From assembly GCF_041886205.1 (NCBI RefSeq), contig NZ_CP169029.1: a stretch of 64,000 nt of DNA; one strand, written 5' to 3'. Position 1 is the stretch's first letter, and each line of letters opens with the position of its first letter. Source of the DNA: Escherichia coli. Lineage in GTDB: Bacteria; Pseudomonadota; Gammaproteobacteria; Enterobacterales; Enterobacteriaceae. The notes below the pieces were generated by a model that was given only the letters and a program-made list of their open reading frames with translations, made no database searches and was not told the origin of the DNA. Shown here piece by piece: positions 8,913-48,505 of the stretch. A program made the position numbers and the translations under genes.

Positions 8913-10517
8913 TTAATCAAACGAAAGACGCCGACGTGCACGGGATGCAGGTTTTACGACCGCCCGAGCCATCGCCTCACCAATTTCTGCACATGCCGTA
9001 AGTCCCTGAACGAAAGGCTGGTCGTGCATCAACCAGGGCAACGCGCCGAACGCTACGCGTCCACGAATATCTTCGGGTTGCTGTAACGTATAATCTTCGC
9101 CAACATCAGGGATTTCATCCCCTGTTTTCTGTAATTGCTCGCGTAGCCCAGGGAAAGGAATATCTTTCACTTTAAGCGGACGCTGTCCGCGGGCATCAAT
9201 AAAAACGTCAAACGAGTAGCTGTTGTCTTCCGTTTTCAGGACGGTGCGCGACTCATTAATTTCCATTTCGTAGTCTTCACCGAGGGCGAGAATATGAATG
9301 ATCCCCGCTTCACGTAAGGCCAGCAGCCGACGAATAGACTCTGAAGGGATTGCCGCATAATTATCGATAAAAACCCGGGTAAGGCCTTTACTGAACCGTT
9401 TATGGTCGTGTTCATTCAGATGTGGAACAATTTCCTGTACGGCTTCATGCAGGCGCAGAATGACATAACGCCAGGGAACAGTATGTTTTTCTCGTTTATT
9501 GCGTTCGACTTCCTGGAGATTTTTTTCTGCCCAGTCAAATGGGTCGCGTTGTTTGCGCTCGGCAAACCAGGCTTGAGCAAAGGAATCGACATTCAGGCTC
9601 TCTAAGGCTATGCGTTGGCTCCAGTCTGGATCAGCAAACTTGATTTCCTCTACTATCAATCTAAATACCCGATCCAAAAGGCCCTCTTCGCCTTTTTGAA
9701 TCTCAGCATTTAATGCCTGATCGGTGACAATGTGTAAGGACTCGTAGGGAATAGGGCAATAGAAATCGGCTTCGGGTAAAATACCCGTGCGCGACATCAA
9801 CGTGATATTTAGCTTTTCACTTGCGTTATCGCGGTGAAAAACGACGTGTTGTTTATCATCTTCAATGAACGAACCATGCTGAATAGCCACTGCCATTGCC
9901 GCATCCAGTCCGCTCAAGGATGTTCCCATAATACCCACGTTACACGCATCGACCTTTGCTTCCATCAGGCCTGACCACGGGCTGGGAAAATACGTTCGGG
10001 TTGCTTCTTCTTCATCAGGCCAGACGTGACCCGTGGCAATCACCGCTAAATCAAACGTCTCGCTGGGTAAACCCTGATTTGTAGCGAGCATGACGCCAGC
10101 ATTTGTAATTTGCAGATCGGTAACCTGGCATGATTCATAAACAGCCACTGCAAATTTTTGCTTTCGTGCCTGGTCTACTAATCGTAAAAATTGATCGCGG
10201 AAATATTCGCCCAGCAGAATTCGCGGTAAAAACTGACGATCGTGCAAGGTTTCTTTTTTAACGCCATAACGCTGGAGATGGCTGGCTTCTTGCTTTTGTA
10301 GCCATTCGAGATACGTACAATTAATCGGCGGTATTTCAATACTGGCAATATTTGCCAGCATCATTTTTGAGTTTTCCTCATCACTGTATGGCATCCCGAC
10401 ACCGGCCTCGTCAGCCTGCTCGAAGATAGAAATAGAAAGTGGAGTTTGTTGCTGTAGAAGCGAGAATAAGGTGTAGATCCCCGTAGGCCCGGCACCCACA
10501 ATAGCAATTTTTTTCAT
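8913..10517 (-). CDS. ydhS: FAD/NAD(P)-binding protein YdhS (534 aa)
   Basis: N-terminal MKKIAIVGAGPTGIYTL Rossmann dinucleotide-binding motif; length as recalled for ydhS. Confidence 0.9.
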   Translation of the reverse strand: MKKIAIVGAGPTGIYTLFSLLQQQTPLSISIFEQADEAGVGMPYSDEENSKMMLANIASIEIPPINCTYLEWLQKQEASHLQRYGVKKETLHDRQFLPRILLGEYFRDQFLRLVDQARKQKFAVAVYESCQVTDLQITNAGVMLATNQGLPSETFDLAVIATGHVWPDEEEATRTYFPSPWSGLMEAKVDACNVGIMGTSLSGLDAAMAVAIQHGSFIEDDKQHVVFHRDNASEKLNITLMSRTGILPEADFYCPIPYESLHIVTDQALNAEIQKGEEGLLDRVFRLIVEEIKFADPDWSQRIALESLNVDSFAQAWFAERKQRDPFDWAEKNLQEVERNKREKHTVPWRYVILRLHEAVQEIVPHLNEHDHKRFSKGLTRVFIDNYAAIPSESIRRLLALREAGIIHILALGEDYEMEINESRTVLKTEDNSYSFDVFIDARGQRPLKVKDIPFPGLREQLQKTGDEIPDVGEDYTLQQPEDIRGRVAFGALPWLMHDQPFVQGLTACAEIGEAMARAVVKPASRARRRLSFD

Positions 10518-10600
10518 TGTTACTTACCTGTACGCATTCTTTCGAATTTAGTGTTATCAGATAAGTTTGGTTGAGATTTTTAGAATTTGAGAAATTTCAG

Positions 10601-10628
10601 ACAGGGATGAAAAGGGCGCTAACCGCCC
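10601..10628 (-). terminator. Probable terminator downstream of ydhR
   Basis: Hairpin gggcg-ctaac-cgccc followed on minus strand by U-rich tract, just after ydhR stop. Confidence 0.4.
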
Positions 10629-10903
10629 TTGATTAAATTCTGTCAGGCGAGTTTTGCCTGATTGATTTGACTCAGTGGCTCATTGACATCGAAAACTTTG
10701 GCGACAACTTCCTCAACGCCGAGATTTTTAAGTCGGGCAGTATGTTTTTCCAGATAGGCAAGGGCGCTTTTTTCATCAGTAAAAAGATAGATCCCACCGG
10801 CTTCGTGGTTCTTTTCACTTTCTGTCCATACCTTCCACAGAAAACCAGGTTCCTGATTAATTGAACCGCCCCGGGTTTCCTGGAGAGTGTTTTATCTGTG
10901 AAC

Positions 10904-11794
10904 TCAGGCTGCCAGATCATCGTTTCCGATGGAAGCATAATAAGCTTTTTCTGCTTCTGCCGGAGGAGTATGGCCCAGCCTTTCCAGCAATCGTCGATTG
11001 TTATACCAGTCCACCCACGTGAGTGTGGCCAGTTCCACTTCTGCACGGTTTTTCCAGCTCTTACGGTGTATTACCTCCGCTTTGTAAAGACCATTGATGC
11101 TCTCCGCCATCGCGTTGTCATACGAGTCGCCTGTACTTCCTGTTGATGCCAGTAATCCGGCTTCCTTAAGCCGCTGTGTGTAGGCCAGCGATACATACTG
11201 AGAACCTTTATCACTGTGATGGACCGTGCCGGACGGTCGACGGGCCCATAACGCCTGCTCCAGTGCATCCAGCACGAATGTCGTTTCCATGGACGATGAG
11301 ACCCGCCACCCCACGATGTATCCGGCAAACACATCAATGATGAACGCCACATAGACGAAGCCCCGCCATGTGCTGACGTAAGTAAAATCAGCCACCCACA
11401 GCTGGTCAGGTCGTTCTGCCACGAACTGACGGTTTACGCGGTCGCCTGCGGCAACGGCTTTCCGGCTGATGGTCGTACGGACCTTTTTACCCCGGAGAAC
11501 ACCGGCAAGTCCCATAACCGCCATGAGACGTGCCACAGTGCATCTGGCCACTCTGATACCTTCCCGTAACAACTGACGCCAGACTTTACGCACACCGTAT
11601 ACCTTGTGATTTTCATCGTATACGCGCTGTATCTCTTTCTTCAGCCAGTCATCGCGCTGCGCACGGGCACTGCGTTTATCCGGATGATGTCGCTGTTGCT
11701 GACAGTGGTAATACGTTGACGGGGCAATATGCAGTTCGCTGCATAGCGGTCCGACCCCGTACTGCTCACGCAGCTTATCCAGCAGTGGCATCAT
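10904..11794 (-). CDS. IS629 transposase OrfB (296 aa, DDE integrase-like)
   Basis: [20 protein letters not shown]...; overlaps orfA consistent with IS3-family programmed frameshift. Confidence 0.9.
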
Positions 11795-12117
11795 TTTTTC
11801 CAGAGGCGGTCGAACTCCGCCTTCGCAAAATAAGCGGAAGCCTGGCGAAGGATATCGTTACTGCGGCGCAGTTCACGATTTTCACGTTCCAGCTCTTTCA
11901 GACGCTGACGTTCAGCGGTGGTGAGCCCTCCATCACCGCCCCCGGTATCCCGCTCATGCTGGCGAACCCAGACACGCAGAGTCTCCGGCGTACAGCCAAT
12001 CTTTGGAGCAATGGAACAAATTGTCGCCCATTGTGAGTCATATTCGCTCTGACTTTCCAGAACCATACGGACTGCCCGTTGACGGACTTCGGGGGAAAAA
12101 CGAGTATTTTTAGTCAT
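11791..12117 (-). CDS. IS629 OrfA (108 aa, HTH)
   Basis: [57 protein letters not shown]... recalled as IS629 OrfA. Confidence 0.9.
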
Positions 12118-12368
12118 CCTGTTTACCTCTTTCTCAGGAAGTTTAGTCTCCAGGATTCCCGGGGCGGTTCAAATCGACTCAGCAAGCGGTTTAAGCTGCT
12201 CAGCCATTGCGTCGCCAAATGGGCCATTAAAAGCAAAATGAAGTTGTAACAAAGTTGCCATAGCGATTCTCCTTCTGATAACGCATACGAAGACAGTGTA
12301 AATCTTTTAACGTATTGGATACAGAGAAGAAACAGAGGGAAAAAGGAGAAGACCAGATTAAGAAAATC

Positions 12369-12445
12369 TGGTGCGTCCGAGTGGACTCGAACCACCGACC
12401 CCCACCATGTCAAGGTGGTGCTCTAACCAACTGAGCTACGGACGC
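12369..12445 (-). tRNA. valW: tRNA-Val (anticodon GAC)
   Basis: Reverse complement GCGTCCGTAGCTCAGTTGGTTAGAGCACCACCTTGACATGGTGGGGGTCGGTGGTTCGAGTCCACTCGGACGCACCA; 77 nt with CCA end. valV/valW name assigned by position only. Confidence 0.9.
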
Positions 12446-12449
12446 AGGA

Positions 12450-12526
12450 TGGTGCGTTCAATTGGACTCGAACCAACGACCCCCACCATGTCAAGGTGGT
12501 GCTCTAACCAACTGAGCTATGAACGC
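12450..12526 (-). tRNA. valV: tRNA-Val (anticodon GAC), second copy
   Basis: Reverse complement GCGTTCATAGCTCAGTTGGTTAGAGCACCACCTTGACATGGTGGGGGTCGTTGGTTCGAGTCCAATTGAACGCACCA; tandem with the first copy, 4-nt spacer. Confidence 0.9.
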
Positions 12527-12833
12527 AACGTTGTAGGTGACAACGGGGACGAATATTAGCGGCAGAGTGGGAAGGTGGCAAGAGGCAAAACGTAATTTTC
12601 TGCGCTATTTCGACCGTTTGCAGAGCTTTTAAGCAAATTGGCTATATTTTGTTGATTTGCAAGGGCGATTTTTATTCAGGATCGCATTTACATCTGATAC
12701 AACCCAATAATTCGTGTATCAGAGTTTAAACAGAGTTGTTTGCCACCATCTCAAATCTGTCGTGGATAAATCCTCCGTAGCCTTTACACTTAGGTAGCAA
12801 TAAAGGCACACAGATGCAGCAAAGGAATAAATC

Positions 12834-14090
12834 ATGGGATCTGATGCGAAAAACTTGATGAGCGACGGGAATGTGCAAATTGTTAAGACCGGCGAGGTCA
12901 TTGGCGCGACGCAACTTACTGAAGGCGAGTTGATTGTTGAAGCTGGCGGAAGAGCCGAAAATACCGTGGTCACGGGGGCTGGCTGGTTGAAAGTGGCAAC
13001 CGGTGGGATCGCCAAATGTACACAGTACGGTAACAATGGCACGCTATCGGTCAGCGACGGTGCCATTGCCACAGATATTGTTCAGTCCGAGGGAGGCGCA
13101 ATTAGTCTCTCTACGCTCGCTACGGTTAATGGCCGCCATCCCGAAGGTGAATTCAGCGTTGATCAGGGTTATGCCTGCGGTTTGTTGCTGGAAAATGGCG
13201 GTAACCTGCGTGTACTGGAAGGACATCGCGCGGAAAAAATCATTCTCGATCAAGAGGGCGGCCTGTTGGTTAATGGGACAACCTCAGCGGTCGTGGTAGA
13301 TGAAGGTGGTGAATTGTTGGTGTATCCAAGTGGGGAAGCCAGCAATTGTGAGATTAATCAGGGCGGCGTTTTTATGCTGGCCGGGAAAGCCAGTGATACG
13401 TTGCTTGCTGGTGGCACCATGAATAATCTCGGTGGTGAAGACTCTGACACTATTGTTGAGAATGGATCCATTTATCGTCTGGGGACGGATGGCCTTCAGC
13501 TCTACAGTTCCGGTAAGACGCAAAACCTGTCCGTGAATGTGGGTGGTCGGGCTGAAGTGCATGCCGGTACGCTGGAAAATGCGGTAATACAAGGTGGGAC
13601 AGTGATCCTGTTGTCACCCACCAGCGCGGACGAAAATTTTGTCGTAGAGGAAGATCGCGCACCGGTTGAACTGACCGGGAGTGTTGCATTACTGGACGGC
13701 GCTTCAATGATTATTGGCTATGGCGCAGATCTGCAACAATCAACGATTACTGTACAGCAGGGCGGTGTATTGATTCTCGACGGCAGTACGGTAAAAGGTG
13801 ACAGTGTCACTTTAAATGTTGGTAACATCAATCTAAATGGCGGAAAACTGTGGCTAATCACTGGTGCGGCAACGCATGTGCAACTGAAAGTGAAACGCCT
13901 GCGCGGAGAGGGAGCGATTTGCCTGCAAACCAGTGCGAAAGAAATTTCACCTGACTTCATCAATGTGAAAGGGGAAGTTACCGGTGATATACACGTTGAG
14001 ATAACAGATGCCAGTCGGCAAACTCTGTGTAACGCACTGAAACTACAGCCAGACGAAGACGGGATTGGCGCAACGCTCCAGCCTGCGTAA
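12834..14090 (+). CDS. ydhQ: Autotransporter/adhesin-like protein YdhQ (418 aa)
   Basis: Gly/Thr/Val-rich repetitive beta-helix-like sequence; length as recalled for ydhQ. Confidence 0.8.
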   Translation: MGSDAKNLMSDGNVQIVKTGEVIGATQLTEGELIVEAGGRAENTVVTGAGWLKVATGGIAKCTQYGNNGTLSVSDGAIATDIVQSEGGAISLSTLATVNGRHPEGEFSVDQGYACGLLLENGGNLRVLEGHRAEKIILDQEGGLLVNGTTSAVVVDEGGELLVYPSGEASNCEINQGGVFMLAGKASDTLLAGGTMNNLGGEDSDTIVENGSIYRLGTDGLQLYSSGKTQNLSVNVGGRAEVHAGTLENAVIQGGTVILLSPTSADENFVVEEDRAPVELTGSVALLDGASMIIGYGADLQQSTITVQQGGVLILDGSTVKGDSVTLNVGNINLNGGKLWLITGAATHVQLKVKRLRGEGAICLQTSAKEISPDFINVKGEVTGDIHVEITDASRQTLCNALKLQPDEDGIGATLQPA

Positions 14091-14130
14091 AAACACAGGC
14101 GCAACCCGTGAAGGTTGCGCCTTGTCTTTA

Positions 14131-15525
<1,395 letters not shown>

Positions 15526-15718
15526 TTATATGAGAGACTAAAAAGCCGCCTGAATGGGCAGCAAAAAGAAGAAGCAGGGGAAATTCAGTCTATTGTAGCG
15601 AGGATTTATTAATTCTCCAGTGAAAAAATAGTCATTCTTACCCCTTCACTGGTAAGGGCGTTTGCCACCTGCTATTGTGCTGAACAGAATGTCTTAACTG
15701 ATTTCAGGAGTTGTAAGT

Positions 15719-16360
15719 ATGTTTACGGGGATTGTACAGGGCACCGCAAAACTGGTGTCGATTGACGAGAAACCAAATTTTCGCACACATGTGGTGGAGT
15801 TACCCGACCACATGCTGGACGGTCTGGAAACCGGTGCTTCCGTGGCGCATAACGGTTGCTGCCTGACCGTGACGGAAATTAACGGCAACCATGTCAGTTT
15901 TGACCTGATGAAAGAAACGTTGCGCATTACCAATCTTGGCGATTTAAAAGTGGGGGATTGGGTAAACGTTGAGCGTGCGGCGAAATTCAGTGATGAAATT
16001 GGCGGACACTTAATGTCAGGTCATATTATGACTACCGCTGAAGTAGCGAAAATATTAACCTCGGAAAATAATCGCCAGATCTGGTTTAAAGTCCAGGATA
16101 GTCAGTTGATGAAATATATTCTGTACAAAGGATTTATTGGCATCGACGGTATTAGCCTGACCGTCGGCGAAGTCACGCCAACGCGTTTTTGCGTCCATTT
16201 AATTCCGGAAACACTGGAACGCACGACTCTTGGGAAGAAAAAACTTGGCGCACGCGTCAACATTGAAATCGATCCACAAACTCAGGCAGTGGTAGATACG
16301 GTAGAACGTGTGCTGGCGGCACGAGAAAATGCCATGAATCAACCAGGTACAGAAGCCTGA
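15719..16360 (+). CDS. ribC: Riboflavin synthase (213 aa)
   Basis: [21 protein letters not shown]... conserved riboflavin synthase N-terminus. Confidence 0.9.
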
Positions 16361-16399
16361 TCTGAAATCGCCCCCGGAGAGGGGGCGATAGAATAGCCT

Positions 16400-17548
16400 T
16401 TAGCGAGCCACTCGAAGGCCGTTTTCAACACCGCGTGAGAACACGACCTGCCAGAGCTGAATATCACGGGCGCGGAAAGCACCTGCACAGGCATTCAGAT
16501 AATAGGTAAACATTCGTTTAAAGCGTTCACTGTAGTTATCCGCAATTTCTGGCCATGCGGCGAGGAATCGTTCATACCACGCCATCAACGTAGTATCGTA
16601 ATCAGCACCGAAGTTATGCCAGTCTTCCATCACAAAGTGGGGTTCGCTGGATTGAGCAATCTGGCGTACAGAGGGCAGGCAACCGTTCGGAAAAATATAT
16701 TTATTAATCCAGGGATCAACATTCAGATCGGTTTTTTTCGAACCGATAGTATGGAGCAGGAATATACCTTCCGGTTTCAAATTACGATCCACCACCGCAA
16801 AATAGGTATCGTAATTTTTCGGTCCGACGTGCTCGAACATCCCCACAGAAACAATACGATCAAACTGGTCGTTCAGGTCACGATAATCTTGCAGCAAAAT
16901 GGTGACATCCAGGCCTTCACAGCGTTCCTGAGCCATTTTTTGCTGTTCGGCAGAAATGGTGACGCCGACCACGCTTACGTCATAGTTAGATGCCATGTAG
17001 TGCGCCAGTCCGCCCCAGCCGCAGCCAATATCCAGTACGCGCATCCCTGGTTTTAACTGCAATTTTTCACAAATCATTTTGAGCTTCGCCTGCTGGGCAG
17101 ATTCCAGATTATCGGCATCTTTCCAGTAAGCGCAGGAATATTGCATGAAGGGATCAAGCATGCGGCTGAACAAGTCATTACCCAAATCGTAATGCTCCTT
17201 GCCGACTATCCAGGCACGTTTTTTACTCTGCAGATTGAAGAGACGAGCGCCGGCAATACGCAGCGTGTCTTTGAAATGATGGGGGAGTTGGTTCTCGAGA
17301 CCTGCGCGTAAGACTTTGCTAAAAAACATATCCAGTCGGTCACATTCCCACCAGCCATCCATATAACTTTCGCCTAACCCCAAAGAGCCTTCTTGCAGAA
17401 CGCGTTTAAAAAAATCGGGGTTTTTCACACGAATATCCGCCGGGGCAGAACCGTTAATGGCTATACCGGCACGGCTAAGTAATTCGTTGGCGATACGGTA
17501 CCAGTTGTCATCCGGTACACTGACTTCTTCTATACACGATGAACTCAT
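16400..17548 (-). CDS. cfa: Cyclopropane-fatty-acyl-phospholipid synthase (382 aa)
   Basis: SAM-methyltransferase motif VLDIGCGWGG; length matches Cfa. Confidence 0.95.
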   Translation of the reverse strand: MSSSCIEEVSVPDDNWYRIANELLSRAGIAINGSAPADIRVKNPDFFKRVLQEGSLGLGESYMDGWWECDRLDMFFSKVLRAGLENQLPHHFKDTLRIAGARLFNLQSKKRAWIVGKEHYDLGNDLFSRMLDPFMQYSCAYWKDADNLESAQQAKLKMICEKLQLKPGMRVLDIGCGWGGLAHYMASNYDVSVVGVTISAEQQKMAQERCEGLDVTILLQDYRDLNDQFDRIVSVGMFEHVGPKNYDTYFAVVDRNLKPEGIFLLHTIGSKKTDLNVDPWINKYIFPNGCLPSVRQIAQSSEPHFVMEDWHNFGADYDTTLMAWYERFLAAWPEIADNYSERFKRMFTYYLNACAGAFRARDIQLWQVVFSRGVENGLRVAR

Positions 17549-17838
17549 AGTTTCTCCATCACTGGTCGGTGATCAGAACCTTAAAACAGCGTAGACGCTT
17601 TTTGGGCTTTGTGAGAAATCTCGCAGAAAAAACCGCGAGTCTATAATCCGACGTAGAACAGAGGGAAAGGAGGAACCCTTGCCGAAATGACCATCCATAG
17701 TGAGTCGGGAACGATCCTGTCCCCGTAAAAACATAATATTTATCGTAGCTTTAACAACTCGAAATTAGTATAGGCCGCTAATTTCAATCATACAACAAAA
17801 TTTTGTTAGCAGCCTAAGTATAAGTATATCGATATAGA

Positions 17839-19050
17839 TCAGTGTGATTCGCTATGAGCGACTTCGGCATTGCCATGATTCTGGCAGCCAACTTCTTCAC
17901 AACGTTGCATCATGTAACCCAGCGCGACCAGCACTACTGTTGATAACATCACGCTGGTGGTGGTGAGCAATGGCGTGCTGATACTGATCAGCCAGGAAAC
18001 TACCAGACTTGCGAGGAAGCACAGACCCAGTTGTAGAGTGTTCTGCAACGCTGCGGCGCGACCAGTTGCGTGTGGGAAGGGACGCAGCGCCTGGGCGACA
18101 ACAATAGGGTAGATCGCGCCATTGGCAATCGCCATCACACAGAATGGGATCAGAATTTCGACCAGCGACACATGGCTAATGAAGCCCGCAGCCCAGGTCG
18201 CAATGACGCTGACAGCAAACAGCACCAGCAACCACGGTAATAACTGCTTGCCTTGCCATTTCTGCAGCGCGGCGCGACAGCCATAACCACCAATCAGAAA
18301 CGCGATAGTTTGCGGGACATAACTTAAACCAATAACTGCCGGGCTGTAGCCCATTTCACTAAGGATGAACGGTGAACCGGTCAGCCATGCAAAAAAACTG
18401 GCTGAACAGGCCGCGTATATCAGCACGTTGCCGCGATAGGTTTTAGAACGTAGCAGGTCGGTAAAGGTCAGACCATCCTGACTATTGTTACGGGCCTTCG
18501 TCGTGGGTTTGAGCCAGAAAATAGGCAGAATCAGCACCACGGTAATGGCAAACAGGGTGGCGAAAATCGCTTGCCAGGAAAAATGGACCAGCAGCCAGCT
18601 TCCTAACAGAGGAGCCAGGGCCGGAGATAGACCCACCAGCGGCATGATGGTCGCAAAAATTCGGTTAACTTTCTGTGAAGGATAATAATCCGTCACTAAC
18701 GCTTGCCAGATAACCGCCGCGGCGCAGACACCCACAGCCTGTACAAAACGCAATACCAGCAGCGTAGCGGCGTTTTCTACCCACAGCATCCCCAGACTAC
18801 CTAACGCAAAAATTGTCAGGCCGATTAATAATACCGGTTTACGACCATAACGGTCGGAGAGCGGCCCCCACAGAAGCTGGGCTGCGGCAAAACCGGCAAG
18901 GAACAGACTAAGGCTGGCACTGACAGCAGACGCAGGCGTTTGCAGGTCGGCCTGTATGGCGGCGAAAGCAGGCAGATACATATCGGTTGCCAGAAAACCG
19001 AGTACGCTCAAACCCGCCAGCCAGACTAAAAATCTTTTCCCAGGTTGCAT
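17839..19050 (-). CDS. punC: MFS transporter YdhC/PunC (403 aa)
   Basis: 12-TM MFS ORF divergent from the LysR regulator gene, as in the ydhB-ydhC pair. Confidence 0.85.
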
Positions 19051-19162
19051 GTATATTCTCTAAATCTCTCAATTAAACACCGCCGCAAAGTGTAGGGAGT
19101 GAAATTAGTGTTGTGAAACGGTAATATTTGATGACTGGTTTCAAAAATTTTGCAGGCAGACT

Positions 19163-20095
19163 ATGTGGTCAGAATATTCACTCGAAGTTGTTGATGCGGT
19201 AGCGCGTAATGGTAGTTTTAGCGCTGCGGCACAGGAGCTGCATCGCGTTCCTTCTGCGGTCAGCTATACCGTGCGTCAGCTGGAAGAGTGGCTGGCGGTG
19301 CCGCTCTTTGAAAGACGGCACCGTGATGTGGAACTGACCGCTGCCGGGGCGTGGTTTCTCAAAGAAGGGCGCTCTGTTGTCAAAAAAATGCAGATCACCC
19401 GCCAGCAATGTCAGCAGATAGCGAACGGCTGGCGCGGTCAGTTAGCTATCGCAGTGGATAATATTGTCAGGCCAGAACGTACACGGCAGATGATCGTTGA
19501 TTTTTATCGCCATTTTGACGACGTCGAACTTCTGGTCTTTCAGGAAGTGTTTAACGGTGTCTGGGATGCGCTTTCCGATGGGCGCGTGGAACTGGCGATT
19601 GGCGCAACACGCGCGATTCCGGTAGGCGGTCGTTATGCCTTCCGGGATATGGGGATGCTAAGCTGGAGTTGCGTTGTTGCCAGCCACCACCCGCTGGCGT
19701 TGATGGATGGCCCGTTCAGCGATGATACGTTGCGCAACTGGCCGTCGTTGGTGCGCGAAGACACCTCGCGAACGCTACCTAAACGTATTACCTGGTTGCT
19801 GGATAACCAAAAAAGAGTTGTCGTGCCTGACTGGGAATCATCGGCAACCTGTATCTCGGCAGGATTATGCATAGGGATGGTGCCAACACATTTCGCCAAA
19901 CCGTGGCTTAATGAGGGGAAGTGGGTAGCACTTGAATTGGAGAACCCCTTCCCGGATTCGGCATGTTGTCTGACATGGCAGCAAAATGATATGTCGCCTG
20001 CGTTAACCTGGCTGCTTGAGTATCTCGGCGATAGTGAGACGCTGAATAAGGAGTGGCTGCGGGAGCCGGAAGAGACTCCCGCAACGGGTGATTAA
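19163..20095 (+). CDS. punR: LysR-type transcriptional regulator YdhB/PunR (310 aa)
   Basis: N-terminal [35 protein letters not shown] typical of the LysR family. Confidence 0.85.
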
Positions 20096-21117
20096 CGACG
20101 ATAGTCGCGGAACGGGCCGTCAGCCACGGAGCGGCGTTCAATCAAACGCGGATGCACTTCAATGGACTGCGGTTCTTCACGTTTGTTGACGATACGATCC
20201 AACAGCATGTTGAACGCTGTTTCACCCAGCGAATCTTTTGGCTGATGGATCGTGGTCAGCGCCGGCGTAAAATAGCGCGCGTTGCGCACGTTATCATAAC
20301 CGATCAGCGAAACATCCTGCGGGACGCGCAGGCCCATTTCATCAGCAGCACAAAGTGCGCCCATTGCCATGATATCGCCACCACAGAAGACGGCAGTAGG
20401 GCGATGCGGCTGCGACAGGATTTGCTGCATGGCGCGATAACCAGATTCGGGTTCAAAGTCACCCTGCACAATCCAGCTTTCCGGCACCTTTATCATCGCT
20501 TCTTCCATCGCCTTCATAAAACCGGCAAGGCGGCCTGCGCCGGTGTTACGTTCCAGCGGGCCGGGGATGACGCCGATTTCGCGGTGGCCGCGTTCAATCA
20601 GATAACGCCCGGCCATGTAGCCGCCTTCGAACGCGTTATCAATGACCGCATCGGTGAAGTCAGCTTTTGCTTCACCCCAGTCCATGACCACCATTGGGAT
20701 ATGGCGATACTCTTCCAGCATCGCCAGCAACGGCTCTGGGTACTCAGAACACATCACCAGCAGACCATCGACGCGTTTTTGCGCCATCATCGACAGATAA
20801 GCCCGCTGTTTCTCAAGATTGTTCCACGCATTACCCAGAATCAGGGTGTAACCTTTCTGGAAGCAATTTTTTTCAACCGCTTCAATGATCTCGGCAAAAT
20901 AGGCCGCTTCGCTGCTGGTCGCCAGCAAACCGATAGACTTGGTGTGGTTAACCTTCAGGCTACGCGCCACCGCGCTAGGGGAGTAGTGTAATTCTTTAAT
21001 CGCTGCCCACACGGCGTTGCGCGTTTCTTCAGCGACGAAACGTGTTTTGTTGATCACGTGTGACACAGTTGTAGTGGAAACGTTTGCTCGTTTCGCTACA
21101 TCTTTTATTGTTGCCAT
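20092..21117 (-). CDS. purR: Purine repressor PurR (341 aa)
   Basis: [56 protein letters not shown]... LacI-family. Confidence 0.95.
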
Positions 21118-21160
21118 TCCATTTCACTCCAGACCCTAACTTCAGCTCCTGCAAAATCGC

Positions 21161-21178
21161 AAGGTAAACGTTTGCCTT
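21161..21178. promoter_or_regulatory. Candidate PurR operator (autoregulation) in purR leader
   Basis: aaggtaaacgtttgcctt is a near-palindrome resembling the PurR box ACGCAAACGTTTGCGT, about 45 bp upstream of purR start. Confidence 0.5.
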
Positions 21179-21415
21179 TACACACCTTACGCACAACAAA
21201 AGTGTTGCGGTACGCCGGAAAAACGACACGGAGCGTCAGGAAGGGGTCAATGGCCAGTACGCAAATAGTGTAAGCGTGGAATTTTGGCCGATCTTGACGA
21301 AAAGGGGAAGTGGTAAAAACACTTATCATTATAAATGACGGGAGATTTTTTCATCACAGTGTGTAAAAATGCGTAATATCACTTTTTGTGTGGTAATAAA
21401 AAAGGAGAAAACTTG

Positions 21416-21505
21416 ATGAGCACCGACCTTAAATTTTCACTGGTAACAACGATTATCGTCCTCGGTTTGATCGTGGCCGTGGGTTTGACTGCCGCGCTGC
21501 ACTGA
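21416..21505 (+). CDS. ynhF: Small membrane protein YnhF (29 aa)
   Basis: ATG..TGA encoding MSTDLKFSLVTTIIVLGLIVAVGLTAALH preceded by aaggag SD; recalled as a known small protein. Confidence 0.65.
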   Translation: MSTDLKFSLVTTIIVLGLIVAVGLTAALH

Positions 21506-21670
21506 TTTCCTCTCGAGGGAGCGCGTTCTCCCTCGCATCTCCTTCCTGTTTGTTAGCAAAATGGCAAAAGTGTTTTCTCTTTTTGTTATTTTCATTTTTT
21601 TGTGATTGCTGTCATGCTTTCGCCACTTTAATGAATATCGCGTAATGACGCGAAGAGGTGGAGATAAGGC

Positions 21671-22840
21671 ATGAAAATTAACTATCCGTTGCTGGCGCTG
21701 GCGATTGGCGCGTTTGGTATCGGGACAACGGAGTTCTCGCCAATGGGCTTATTGCCCGTCATTGCGCGCGGTGTGGATGTCTCGATTCCCGCTGCCGGAA
21801 TGTTAATCAGTGCCTATGCAGTTGGCGTAATGGTGGGCGCGCCGCTGATGACGCTTCTACTTTCTCATCGTGCCCGCCGCAGTGCGTTGATTTTCCTGAT
21901 GGCGATTTTCACGCTCGGCAACGTACTTTCCGCCATCGCGCCGGATTATATGACTCTCATGCTTTCACGCATTTTGACCAGCCTGAATCACGGAGCATTT
22001 TTTGGTTTGGGTTCAGTTGTGGCCGCAAGCGTGGTGCCAAAACATAAACAGGCCAGCGCAGTTGCCACTATGTTTATGGGGTTAACCCTGGCAAATATCG
22101 GTGGCGTGCCGGCGGCGACCTGGTTGGGTGAAACCATCGGCTGGCGGATGTCATTTCTGGCAACGGCGGGGCTGGGCGTGATTTCAATGGTAAGTCTGTT
22201 CTTCTCATTACCTAAAGGTGGTGCAGGGGCACGACCTGAAGTGAAAAAAGAGCTGGCGGTATTAATGCGTCCGCAGGTGCTGTCTGCATTGCTGACGACG
22301 GTACTGGGAGCTGGTGCAATGTTTACCCTCTACACCTATATCTCTCCGGTACTGCAAAGTATTGCCCACGCAACACCGGTGTTCGTCACGGCAATGCTGG
22401 TGCTGATTGGTGTCGGATTCTCTATCGGTAACTATCTCGGCGGCAAACTGGCAGATCGTTCAGTTAACGGCACGTTGAAAGGCTTTTTGTTGTTGTTGAT
22501 GGTGATTATGCTGGCAATCCCGTTCCTGGCCCGCAATGAGTTCGGCGCAGCTATTAGCATGGTGGTGTGGGGCGCAGCAACCTTTGCGGTCGTACCGCCG
22601 TTACAGATGCGCGTGATGCGTGTCGCCAGTGAAGCGCCAGGTCTGTCTTCATCAGTCAATATTGGTGCCTTTAATCTTGGAAATGCGCTGGGAGCAGCGG
22701 CTGGTGGTGCGGTAATTTCCGCTGGGCTGGGATACAGCTTTGTGCCGGTGATGGGGGCGATTGTCGCGGGACTGGCATTATTGCTGGTGTTTATGTCAGC
22801 CAGAAAACAACCTGAAACAGTTTGCGTTGCTAACAGCTAA
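21671..22840 (+). CDS. ydhP: MFS transporter YdhP (389 aa)
   Basis: 12-TM MFS ORF, correct length and position next to sodB. Confidence 0.85.
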   Translation: MKINYPLLALAIGAFGIGTTEFSPMGLLPVIARGVDVSIPAAGMLISAYAVGVMVGAPLMTLLLSHRARRSALIFLMAIFTLGNVLSAIAPDYMTLMLSRILTSLNHGAFFGLGSVVAASVVPKHKQASAVATMFMGLTLANIGGVPAATWLGETIGWRMSFLATAGLGVISMVSLFFSLPKGGAGARPEVKKELAVLMRPQVLSALLTTVLGAGAMFTLYTYISPVLQSIAHATPVFVTAMLVLIGVGFSIGNYLGGKLADRSVNGTLKGFLLLLMVIMLAIPFLARNEFGAAISMVVWGAATFAVVPPLQMRVMRVASEAPGLSSSVNIGAFNLGNALGAAAGGAVISAGLGYSFVPVMGAIVAGLALLLVFMSARKQPETVCVANS

Positions 22841-22985
22841 TTAAACAAAAACGCAGAAGGATAACCTTCTGCGTTACAGTTGCTGACAACGTGCGATTTA
22901 TCTTGCCGAATGCGCTGTTAACGCCTCATCCGCGTTGGCATGGTAAGCGAAGCGCATTAGGCAATACTGCATTTGCCATCAGTTA

Positions 22986-23567
22986 TTATGCAGCGAGATT
23001 TTTCGCTACGAATTCCCAGTTCACCAGCGCCCAGAAGTGCTCCAGATAGCCAGGACGTGCATTGCGATAGTCGATGTAATAAGCGTGTTCCCAGACATCA
23101 ACGGTCAGCAGCGGAGTCGCATCGGTGGTCAGCGGAGTACCCGCGTTAGAGGTTGAAACGATAGCCAGTTTGCCATCGCTGTTTTTCACCAGCCAGGTCC
23201 AGCCAGAACCAAAGTTTTTGATCGCTGCATCAGTAAACTGCGCTTTGAAATCGGCAAAGCTGCCAAAAGATACGGCGATAGCTTCAGCGACTTTTCCAGT
23301 CGGTTCGCCACCGGCGTTCGGTGCCAGGCAGTTCCAGTAGAAAGTATGGTTCCAGACCTGAGCTGCGTTGTTGAATACGCCACCTTCAGAGCTGCGAATA
23401 ATCTCTTCCAGTGATTTACCTTCAAACGCGGTACCTTTAATCAGGTTGTTCAGGTTAGTGACATAAGTCTGATGGTGCTTGCCGTAGTGATACTCGATGG
23501 TTTCCGCAGAAATGTGCGGTGCCAGAGCATCTTTAGCATATGGTAGTGCAGGTAATTCGAATGACAT
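22986..23567 (-). CDS. sodB: Iron superoxide dismutase (193 aa)
   Basis: [40 protein letters not shown]... canonical Fe-SOD. Confidence 0.95.
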
Positions 23568-23694
23568 TGCTACTCTCCTTTATTATTAATTTGCATACGT
23601 ACAATAGCCTTATTGTGCGTATGGATAGGGTAGCAAATTAAAAGGTGAGACAAAAGATGAACTTACCCTGTTGCCGTAACAACAGGGTAAAGTT

Positions 23695-24510
23695 TTAGCG
23701 AAGTGTTTTTGGGGTCATTACCCGACGAGCGCCAACATAGTGGCGCTGCCAGTAGTCTTCACTGAGAGAAGTGATTTGAATTTCCTGACCTGTGCGCGGT
23801 GACTGAATAAATTTGCCGTTGCCGACATACACGCCGACATGATCGGCTGTGCCGCGTCCCTGAGTACGGAAAAAGACCAGGTCGCCGTTTTTCAGTTCAC
23901 TACGTTCGATTGGCGCTGCATCACGCAGGTGATACATTTCATTCGCCGTACGCGGAATACGAATTTTCACCAAATCTTTATAAGCGTAATAAACCAGGCC
24001 GCTGCAATCAAAACCGGTACGCGGTGAGCTGCCACCCCAACGATATGGCTTACCAATTTGCTGCATCAGTTTATTCATTGCCACTTTCGTAGCTTTTTGC
24101 ACCTTCGCTTTGTGCGCGTCGGCAAGAGTTCCTGACGCGGCATTTTTGACTTTCACACAATGCGATTTATAGCCCTTACGTTTGGTACACTTTTCGGTAA
24201 AGCTGGCTGAGGCCGTTTTATTGACGGCGTGTTTGCTGCGAGTTTTGGCGTTTTTAGAAGCGGTAATGGAAGATTTTTTAACGGAAGAAGCGGTTTTGCT
24301 TTTGGTCGTACTTTTACTGGCGGCTTTTTTCGCTGTTTTCTGGGTCTTTTTGGTGGTTGCCGTGCTTTTCTTTTTATCTGCTTTTTTGGTGATATGAGTG
24401 GTAGCAGAACTCTCCCTGGCTTGCTTTGAAGCATGGGCCATAGGCGTTAAAGGCAGGGTGGTAAAAAGTAAAGCACAGAGCGTGATCGAAATACGGTTTA
24501 TCCGCGCCAC
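23695..24510 (-). CDS. mepH: NlpC/P60 peptidoglycan endopeptidase MepH (YdhO, 271 aa)
   Basis: Signal peptide, Lys/Ser/Thr/Ala-rich linker, C-terminal NlpC/P60 domain (FDCSGLVYYAY...). Confidence 0.9.
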   Translation of the reverse strand: MARINRISITLCALLFTTLPLTPMAHASKQARESSATTHITKKADKKKSTATTKKTQKTAKKAASKSTTKSKTASSVKKSSITASKNAKTRSKHAVNKTASASFTEKCTKRKGYKSHCVKVKNAASGTLADAHKAKVQKATKVAMNKLMQQIGKPYRWGGSSPRTGFDCSGLVYYAYKDLVKIRIPRTANEMYHLRDAAPIERSELKNGDLVFFRTQGRGTADHVGVYVGNGKFIQSPRTGQEIQITSLSEDYWQRHYVGARRVMTPKTLR

Positions 24511-24843
24511 TGAGCGTCCCTCTGTTAAGGCAGGTCTATCATGCCTGCGTCTGATTTACAAAACTTGATGATTCTAATGCATAGAAGAAGAGAAAGTTAA
24601 TAGCTTTTATTGTTAAAAAATACGTTTCGTTGGCGAGCGCAAAAAAATGCAGCAGTGAAAGCTAAAAATGGTTATAAATACGCCAGTTTGCCGGCATCAG
24701 AGAAGAAACGAATATTTGAAATGCAACAAATAGAGCAAAGGGATAAAATAGCAAAAGCGTGATGAAAATGTTATTTTCCGATGCCGCACTGACCCGCTAC
24801 AATGTCAGATTACTGCCGTAAAGAAGTTTGAGGAAGCAAGACA

Positions 24844-25191
24844 ATGAGCACCACTATCGAAAAAATCCAACGCCAGATTGCTGAAAACCCGATCCTGCTG
24901 TACATGAAAGGTTCACCGAAACTGCCGAGCTGCGGTTTCTCTGCCCAGGCAGTCCAGGCGCTTGCCGCATGTGGCGAACGTTTTGCCTATGTTGATATTC
25001 TGCAGAATCCGGACATTCGTGCGGAACTGCCGAAATATGCTAACTGGCCGACCTTCCCGCAACTGTGGGTTGACGGCGAGCTGGTAGGCGGTTGTGATAT
25101 CGTGATCGAAATGTATCAGCGTGGCGAATTGCAGCAGCTGATCAAAGAAACTGCCGCTAAATACAAGTCTGAAGAGCCGGACGCGGAATAA
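24844..25191 (+). CDS. grxD: Monothiol glutaredoxin Grx4 (115 aa)
   Basis: CGFS active site (PKLPSCGFSAQAVQAL). Confidence 0.9.
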   Translation: MSTTIEKIQRQIAENPILLYMKGSPKLPSCGFSAQAVQALAACGERFAYVDILQNPDIRAELPKYANWPTFPQLWVDGELVGGCDIVIEMYQRGELQQLIKETAAKYKSEEPDAE

Positions 25192-25205
25192 TCCGTCTCG
25201 CAATA

Positions 25206-25233
25206 CTGACGGATGCGAACGGGCATCCGTCAG
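25206..25233. terminator. Possible bidirectional terminator hairpin between convergent grxD and lhr
   Basis: Inverted repeat tgacggatgc-gaac-gggcatccgtca; weak U-tract. Confidence 0.35.
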
Positions 25234-25241
25234 TCCTTTCT

Positions 25242-47737: not shown

Positions 47738-47792
47738 GGTGATGCTGCCAACTTACTGATTTAGTGTATGATGGTGTTTTTGAGGTGCTCCA

Positions 47793-48068
47793 GTGGCTTC
47801 TGTTTCTATCAGCTGTCCCTCCTGTTCAGCTACTGACGGGGTGGTGCGTAACGGCAAAAGCACCGCCGGACATCAGCGCTATCTCTGCTCTCACTGCCGT
47901 AAAACATGGCAACTGCAGTTCACTTACACCGCTTCTCAACCCGGTACGCACCAGAAAATCATTGATATGGCCATGAATGGCGTTGGATGCCGGGCAACCG
48001 CCCGCATTATGGGCGTTGGCCTCAACACGATTTTCCGCCATTTAAAAAACTCAGGCCGCAGTCGGTAA
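47793..48068 (+). CDS. insA: IS1 InsA (91 aa)
   Basis: Identical protein to the other IS1 copy. Confidence 0.95.
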
Positions 48069-48490
48069 CCTCGCGCATACAGCCGGGCAGTGACGTCATC
48101 GTCTGCGCGGAAATGGACGAACAGTGGGGCTATGTCGGGGCTAAATCGCGCCAGCGCTGGCTGTTTTACGCGTATGACAGGCTCCGGAAGACGGTTGTTG
48201 CGCACGTATTCGGTGAACGCACTATGGCGACGCTGGGGCGTCTTATGAGCCTGCTGTCACCCTTTGACGTGGTGATATGGATGACGGATGGCTGGCCGCT
48301 GTATGAATCCCGCCTGAAGGGAAAGCTGCACGTAATCAGCAAGCGATATACGCAGCGAATTGAGCGGCATAACCTGAATCTGAGACAGCACCTGGCACGG
48401 CTGGGACGGAAGTCGCTGTCGTTCTCAAAATCGGTGGAGCTGCATGACAAAGTCATCGGGCATTATCTGAACATAAAACACTATCAATAA
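47987..48490 (+). CDS. insB: IS1 InsB reading frame
   Basis: Identical 167-aa ORF; slippery ttaaaaaactc upstream overlap with insA. Confidence 0.9.
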
Positions 48491-48505
48491 GTTGGAGTCA
48501 TTACC

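Follow-up and report, generated by a model that had tools for sequence, protein, structure and literature searches.

How did an insertion sequence (IS) come to lie in the middle of the small gene ydhR of Escherichia coli, and does its presence there say anything about the lineage of the strain which carries it? In this work we have investigated a stretch of 64,000 nucleotides of contig NZ_CP169029.1 (assembly GCF_041886205.1), called the window below, in which ydhR is divided by a complete element of 1,310 bp. The initial annotation of this stretch, made from its letters alone, regarded the element as IS629, its transposition as simple and probably recent, and IS629 itself as characteristic of Shigella and of O157-type E. 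coli and hence as a lineage marker. Our main conclusion, to which we assign a probability of about 93%, is that an active IS of the IS629 type transposed, apparently recently, into ydhR and gave rise to a null allele. The marker interpretation is not supported. Elements of the same family have entered this part of the chromosome repeatedly in other strains, and this raises the further question of whether the patch around ydhR is one of their preferred targets.

Anatomy of the insertion in ydhR

The element occupies positions 10862-12171 of the window, exactly 1,310 bp, on the minus strand; these bounds were obtained by reading the sequence and were checked by script. Its two terminal inverted repeats, the right one (IRR, on the orfB side; 10862..10886, TGAACCGCCCCGGGTTTCCTGGAGA) and the left one (IRL, on the orfA side; 12147..12171), match at 23 of 25 bases, and in inverted orientation both ends begin with TGAACCGCCCCGGG, whose start is TGAACC. 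This 14-mer is found twice in the window, at the two ends of the element, where 0.01 occurrences would be expected by chance. The ends have the form 5'-TG...CA-3' and are accompanied by a short target duplication, as they are in the IS3 family. Directly outside them stands the trinucleotide AAT, the left copy at 10859-10861 (AAT on the plus strand, ATT on the strand of the gene) and the right copy at 12172-12174. The 3-bp duplication is perfect, which excludes a non-duplicated flank and bears out the direct repeats and the simple transposition that were described initially.

When the element and one AAT are excised, an uninterrupted open reading frame (ORF) of 101 amino acids is restored, and this YdhR matches the Pfam family PF08803 over residues 4-98. 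It had been claimed that the gene is split between the codons for Ile28 and Asn29. That ydhR is split holds; the position does not, since the break lies between Ile30 and Asn31. The duplicated triplet is the Ile30 codon of ydhR, ATT on the gene strand. The 5' fragment of the gene (12172..12261, minus strand) contains codons 1-30 and encodes an N-terminal fragment of 30 amino acids (MATLLQ...AESI); its ORF, 12169..12261, ends in frame at a TGA formed by the first three bases of the IS end on the gene strand, so that the left inverted repeat itself supplies the stop of the truncated protein after residue 30. The 3' fragment (10644..10861, minus strand), recognized from the restored ORF and the PF08803 match, comprises codons 31-101, the stop codon and the left AAT, and is without a start codon of its own. 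The two genes of the element and ydhR are read in the same direction, from the minus strand. About 70% of the single YdhR domain is removed, from which we infer that ydhR::IS is a null allele and that the function of the protein is lost.

Both transposase genes are intact, with no frameshift or stop codon, so the initial description of a complete element stands in this respect as well. The product of orfA (12117..11791, minus strand; 108 aa) is the DNA-binding part with the Pfam domain HTH_Tnp_1, and that of orfB (11794..10904, minus strand; 296 aa) is the catalytic part of the transposase with HTH_21, rve (the DDE integrase core, 97 bits) and rve_3, the DDE and helix-turn-helix combination of the IS3 family. 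The genes overlap in the tetranucleotide ATGA (11794..11791), at once the stop of orfA and the start of orfB, which comes directly after a run of six A residues at 11794-11799. As in other IS3-family elements, orfB follows orfA with a shift of -1 in frame, and a frameshift signal is located where the two overlap. An ALIL pseudoknot (Rfam RF01497; 11720..11836, minus strand), full-length over positions 1-117 and scored by cmscan at 120.2 bits against a gathering score of 50, spans both the A6 run and ATGA. In RefSeq, sequence-identical copies of the element are annotated with the same pseudoknot and with a 404-aa 'programmed frameshift' IS3-family transposase; slippage at the last Lys codon before UGA would join OrfA residues 1-108 to MMPLLDK..., matching this length of 404 amino acids. 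ALIL has been described as a stimulator of -1 frameshifting in IS3411 and at least 27 other ISs. The family to which IS629 belongs uses -1 frameshifting and a circular intermediate, and IS629 makes target duplications of 3-4 bp.

How the element may have reached ydhR can be proposed by analogy with the IS3 family, from which the pathway, including its circular intermediate, is borrowed here. IS911, IS3, IS2 and IS150, on which the copy-out-paste-in mechanism was worked out, differ from the window element in sequence but have in common with it the OrfA/OrfAB organisation, the DDE (rve) core, the 5'-TG...CA-3' ends and the 3-bp duplication. According to this scheme, ribosomes translating the A6 run at the end of orfA would slip into the -1 frame with the help of the ALIL pseudoknot, and the resulting fusion protein OrfAB would excise a double-stranded circular copy of the element. 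The circle would then integrate at cuts staggered by 3 bp, the repair of the stagger would duplicate ATT/AAT, the Ile30 codon, and translation of YdhR would from then on end after residue 30 at the TGA which the IS supplies.

The surroundings of the gene bear on what the insertion might do to its neighbours. The nearer tRNA-Val(GAC) gene found by ARAGORN lies 197 bp from the IS end, in agreement with the distance of some 200 bp to a tandem tRNA-Val pair given in the initial annotation. The pair (12369..12526, minus strand; genes at 12369-12445 and 12450-12526, also found as Rfam tRNA) is upstream of ydhR, and a terminator scan places a terminator-like hairpin after valV (12372..12352, minus strand). 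By direct reading, a further hairpin, GGGCG-GTTAG-CGCCC followed by TTTT, lies 15 nt past the ydhR stop (10610..10628, minus strand); it was not flagged by a simple terminator scan and looks like the terminator of ydhR itself. As ydhR is situated between the terminator-like hairpin on the valVW side and its own hairpin with a T-run, little polarity on ydhS and the other neighbours is to be expected. On the plus strand, Rfam RF02194 ('bacterial antisense RNA HPnc0260') was also matched over its full length at 12245-12407 (112 bits against a threshold of 59). This match begins 74 bp from the end of the IS and is antisense both to the 5' part of ydhR and to a portion of the nearer tRNA-Val gene.

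Naming of the element and the lineage question

Can the element be called IS629? The name is taken from proxies, that is, from annotated copies and from labels of the National Center for Biotechnology Information (NCBI), and not from alignment to the ISfinder references X51586, IS1203 and IS3411. The whole 1,310 bp are 100% identical to many copies on plasmids of E. coli and some of Salmonella, to a copy in the integrase (int) gene of phage 21 in strain EC38 and to chromosomal copies and those of strains 582 and 23AR0151. With copies in Stx phages that were annotated by their depositors as 'insertion sequence: IS3 family IS629', the identity is 99.5%. Window OrfB is exactly the protein AAN78635 of the uropathogenic strain CFT073 and its duplicates, and a protein named by NCBI 'IS3-like element IS629 family transposase' is identical to it over their overlap. 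The features of IS629 as annotated in E. coli genomes and Stx phages, namely the length of 1,310 bp, inverted repeats of 25 bp, a 3-bp duplication and orfA and orfB in the 0 and -1 frames, are those seen in the window. Judged by its sequence, the element is IS629 in the sense usual among annotators.

The family is nevertheless a swarm of variants of the same length: in a matrix of 20 copies, all of them 1,310 bp long, pairwise differences reached 78 positions, with identity of at least 94% throughout. IS629 of Shigella sonnei was reportedly described by Matsutani and Ohtsubo in 1990. A copy in S. sonnei Moseley, of which 400 bp are present at a contig end, differs from the window type at 3 positions (99.25% identity) and from most other sequence types at 15-18; the window type is the closest of all those compared. 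An OrfA named 'Shigella boydii' led to assemblies with six full copies, and these differ from the window element at 33-34 positions (97.4-97.5% identity). The type of O157 and O111 strains, labelled separately by NCBI as IS1203 family, differs at 49-51 positions (96.1-96.3% identity); IS1203 or IS1203v, known from E. coli O111:H- and O157:H7 and named 'sub-type I' by Rump et al. (2011), has the same length, architecture and ends as the window element. These authors distinguished three sub-types of IS629 which are 4-5% apart, and treated IS1203 and IS3411 as isoforms. The E. coli element IS3411 is the model for ALIL-stimulated frameshifting, and the window element too has a full-length ALIL; this likeness is known from descriptions of IS3411 and not from its sequence. 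ISfinder counts as isoforms those elements whose nucleotide identity to the reference is about 95% or more.

The insertion is probably recent, as had been supposed initially, because the IS is 100% identical to many other copies, because many genomes contain an intact ydhR allele to which the reconstructed 468-bp empty site is 100.0% identical, and because the same YdhS occurs beside an intact ydhR. The exact YdhS protein of the window is listed in 893 blocks of a public collection, and ydhR was intact beside it in all six places that were read; strain 6EVA, whose flank is 100.0% identical to that of the window, also has an intact gene. Could the junctions be an artefact of assembly, with a repeat collapsed or misplaced into ydhR? 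Copies of ISs are a classic source of misassembly, but a perfect 3-bp duplication and the exact restoration of the gene speak against it, as do equivalent insertions in many closed genomes and an independent draft, GCA_036252295.1, in which a contig of 97 kb (JAYLMH010000018.1) shares with the window 4,090 bp of flank at 100% identity and breaks off precisely where ydhR meets the IS; this draft is the one lead to the lineage of the window. We regard an artefact as hardly credible. Several points nevertheless weigh against our conclusion of a recent, active IS629 and a null allele: the run before the orfA stop is G_AAA_AAA and not the canonical A_AAA_AAA heptamer, the activity of this copy is deduced from its reading frames, we know of no phenotype of ydhR loss, and the formally best ISfinder name may be that of an isoform such as IS3411. 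The last point leads to the possibility that the element belongs under another named member of the IS3 family, IS1203 or IS3411, and not under IS629. The breadth of the swarm, the 'IS1203 family' label on the O157/O111 type and the fact that the window type is the common plasmid type of E. coli would allow this; IS3411 was described from an E. coli transposon. The window element is, on the other hand, only 96.3% identical to the IS1203 type as against 99.5% to copies annotated as IS629, the IS629-family label is attached to a protein identical to OrfB over the overlap, and the S. sonnei fragment is closest to the window type. Moreover, with IS1203 and IS3411 described as isoforms of IS629, the difference would be one of naming and not of kind. 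We therefore consider a different name improbable and retain IS629.

Was the insertion, then, inherited vertically over a long time, so as to mark a Shigella or O157-type lineage? This question was put to a reference set of 5,426 complete E. coli genomes. The load of ISs in the window is high, with one IS629 and two IS1 in 64 kb, and is in this sense Shigella-like; so are the rearrangements of the window, which are present in none of the reference genomes, and the window's own combination of site, orientation and IS type was found in 0 of the 5,426. The flank from 12600 to 29508 (16.9 kb), however, is 100.0% identical to ordinary faecal and animal isolates of E. coli such as 6EVA, in which ydhR is intact. 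The type to which the IS belongs is carried by CFT073, by ordinary isolates from faeces and animals and by plasmids of E. coli and Salmonella; the IS is not of the O157 type, to which it is 96% identical, and its identity to the copies taken as the S. boydii type is 97.4-97.5%, as against 100% to the many copies listed above. Some match to the IS was obtained in 4,263 reference genomes, and 3,042 (56%) have a place covering at least 80% of it, that is, a near-full copy. Finally, other lineages have received independent insertions at this very site. An old lineage marker appears very unlikely to us, and the view that the element is restricted to Shigella and O157 lineages, or that its site is unique, is not supported. 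What does stand from the initial annotation is the absence of IS629 from K-12, which is stated in the literature. Since ydhR is recurrently targeted, down to the same trinucleotide, 'ydhR::IS629' is homoplasic, and only the site, the orientation and the sequence type of the IS taken together could mark a lineage. For typing, neither the presence of IS629 nor 'ydhR::IS629' can be read as a marker of Shigella or O157.

Rearrangements elsewhere in the window

Other parts of the window depart from the usual E. coli arrangement. At 29508 the gene lhr is cut, without its first 160 codons, and 124 bp of foreign DNA follow, of which 29513-29560 are 100% identical to the last 48 bp of the right end of phage Mu and the other 72 bp matched none of the complete E. 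coli genomes. From 29633 onwards the window continues with the region upstream of yniB, and this lhr'/yniB junction was found in 0 of the 5,426 genomes. The gene order of the window is ydhV..ydhR..lhr', then yniB..arpB, IS1, thrS..nlpC, IS1 and aroD..ydiJ..sufBCD. Normally in E. coli, yniB..thrS..nlpC..aroD..suf stands before ydhV..ydhR..lhr, so that the arrangement in the window is circularly permuted, which suggests the junction of a tandem duplication or a translocation. The IS1 copy between arpB and thrS (768 bp, 35749-36516) has a perfect 9-bp duplication, GCTCTGATG, and is a simple insertion. The second copy, at 47738-48505, is 100% identical to the first, inverted relative to it and without target duplication; its flanks correspond to K-12 positions 1,791,963 (in rflP) and 1,775,650 (in ydiF), and it replaces 16.3 kb of the K-12 sequence, from ydiF' through ppsA and aroH to 'rflP. 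This arrangement is consistent with an IS1-mediated adjacent deletion. The strain of draft GCA_036252295.1 probably lacks both the IS1 and the lhr rearrangement, which in the window lie 17-24 kb away from the insertion, because its contig is 97 kb long. A junction 30-mer of the window had no match among the species-representative genomes of GTDB, and the truncated Lhr ORF is not on record.

Recurrent insertion at the ydhR patch

How often has the neighbourhood of ydhR been entered by such elements? The real 1,781-bp stretch of flank, IS and flank was used as a query, counted at a coverage of at least 80%, together with a second, synthetic query in which the IS was flipped. The real query was found in 18 genomes and the flipped one in 22 further genomes, so that a full IS629-family copy lies within about 1.4 kb of ydhR in 40 of the 5,426 genomes, in both orientations. 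Two queries built with the same geometry as controls, one in ydhP (window 22200) and one in ydiJ (window 57000), were found in 0 and 0 genomes. Within a core patch of 471 bp, insertions were present in 19 genomes, where about 2 would be expected if the 22,972 chromosomal places of the element were spread uniformly. An apparent orientation bias, 18 of 18 the same way in the first search, was rejected as an artefact of joining only pieces on one strand, as the flipped query gave 22.

Eighteen of the 40 loci were mapped and fall at no fewer than 14 distinct sites, which extend from the spacer between ydhS and ydhR to that between valV and ydhR (a patch of about 10400-12560 in window coordinates). 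Most of the mapped insertions have 3-bp duplications and two have 4-bp ones, while in strain F3113 an IS629-family copy without duplication adjoins a deletion of 47 bp. Several sequence types of the IS are involved, and the insertions at the patch are therefore independent events; the IS1203 type is among them, in strains F3398, MA11, ERL05-1306, RIMD 0509939 and F8798. In strain 2013C-4974 an IS 95.0% identical to that of the window stands at the same AAT triplet in the opposite orientation. The public collection lists the truncated YdhR product of 30 amino acids in 62 of its blocks, and the ten places with this product that were read belong to at least four flank lineages, at least three of them other than that of the window, with three variants of the IS end. 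Wherever the orientation could be read in these other lineages, the IS at this AAT is in the opposite orientation. The same AAT trinucleotide has thus been hit independently at least three times. Two further arrangements were seen at this place: in GCA_003015285.1 (PVMF01000005.1) two IS629-family copies lie 1 kb apart, one at the AAT site of ydhR and one in ydhS with the duplication GGCC, and in CP027597.1 the IS is at the AAT site and the rest of ydhR is lost up to the terminator, an IS-adjacent deletion.

What makes this patch a target? Its G+C content is 42%, as against 50% for the window, with a trough of 27% in the ydhS-ydhR spacer. The insertion site of the window lies in a palindrome of 8 bp, GATTAATC. 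A second site which has been hit several times lies 195 bp further along ydhR (at about 10660-10685 in the window), and CCTGATT(N)AT(N)GACTCAG is common to this site and that of the window, the distance from GACTCAG to the duplication being equal in both; this motif was discarded as a general determinant, being absent from about 15 unrelated IS629 sites. Some IS3-family elements target sequences that resemble their own inverted repeats. This explanation was likewise rejected here, as the best match to IRL or IRR in an 848-bp patch is 15 of 25, within the range of 13-17 seen for random pieces of the window. In the work of Rump et al. the specificity of IS629 'remains unknown', and no hot spot was seen, although a regional preference was held possible. 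The literature that we searched contained no paper naming ydhR together with IS629; the main survey of sites, that of Ooka et al. (2009), was outside the reach of this search. We would put it at about even odds that the ydhS-ydhR-valVW patch, and within it the ATT/AAT at codon 30, is a previously undescribed preferred target of IS629-family transposases.

It may be asked whether the recurrence arises instead from selection that favours losing ydhR or the transcript of a neighbour. Among the mapped insertions, many do interrupt ydhR or stand a short way upstream of its start codon. In a search with the intact 468-bp patch, the patch was in one piece in 5,406 genomes and split in 29, and about ten of these 29 are not accounted for by the mapped IS629-family insertions, so that other elements could be involved, as selection would allow. 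Insertions are also found, however, in the intergenic regions on either side, within ydhS and past the tRNA genes, and in both orientations, which is unlike selection for a single effect. About two thirds of the split patches are due to a single family of elements, that of IS629; the reuse of one trinucleotide at least three times points to the choice of target, and ydhR is intact in more than 99% of the genomes. Selection for the loss of ydhR is thus a possible but rather doubtful cause, and the spread of the sites and the reuse of the triplet fit a target preference better.

The single ydhR::IS629 event is of an ordinary and already known kind, and alone it matters little: it is a further case of IS629 disabling a small gene with no known physiological role. 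The hot spot, a by-product of its analysis, is of modest interest. A patch of about 0.5-3 kb, with 40 insertions as compared with none in two control patches, nevertheless provides a concrete and testable case for the target choice of IS629. If the preference is real, the element would be reading some local feature of its target, perhaps the structure of the DNA, a protein bound there or a location immediately downstream of a tRNA operon with strong transcription, and the patch would offer a natural substrate for studying how IS3-family elements choose where to insert.

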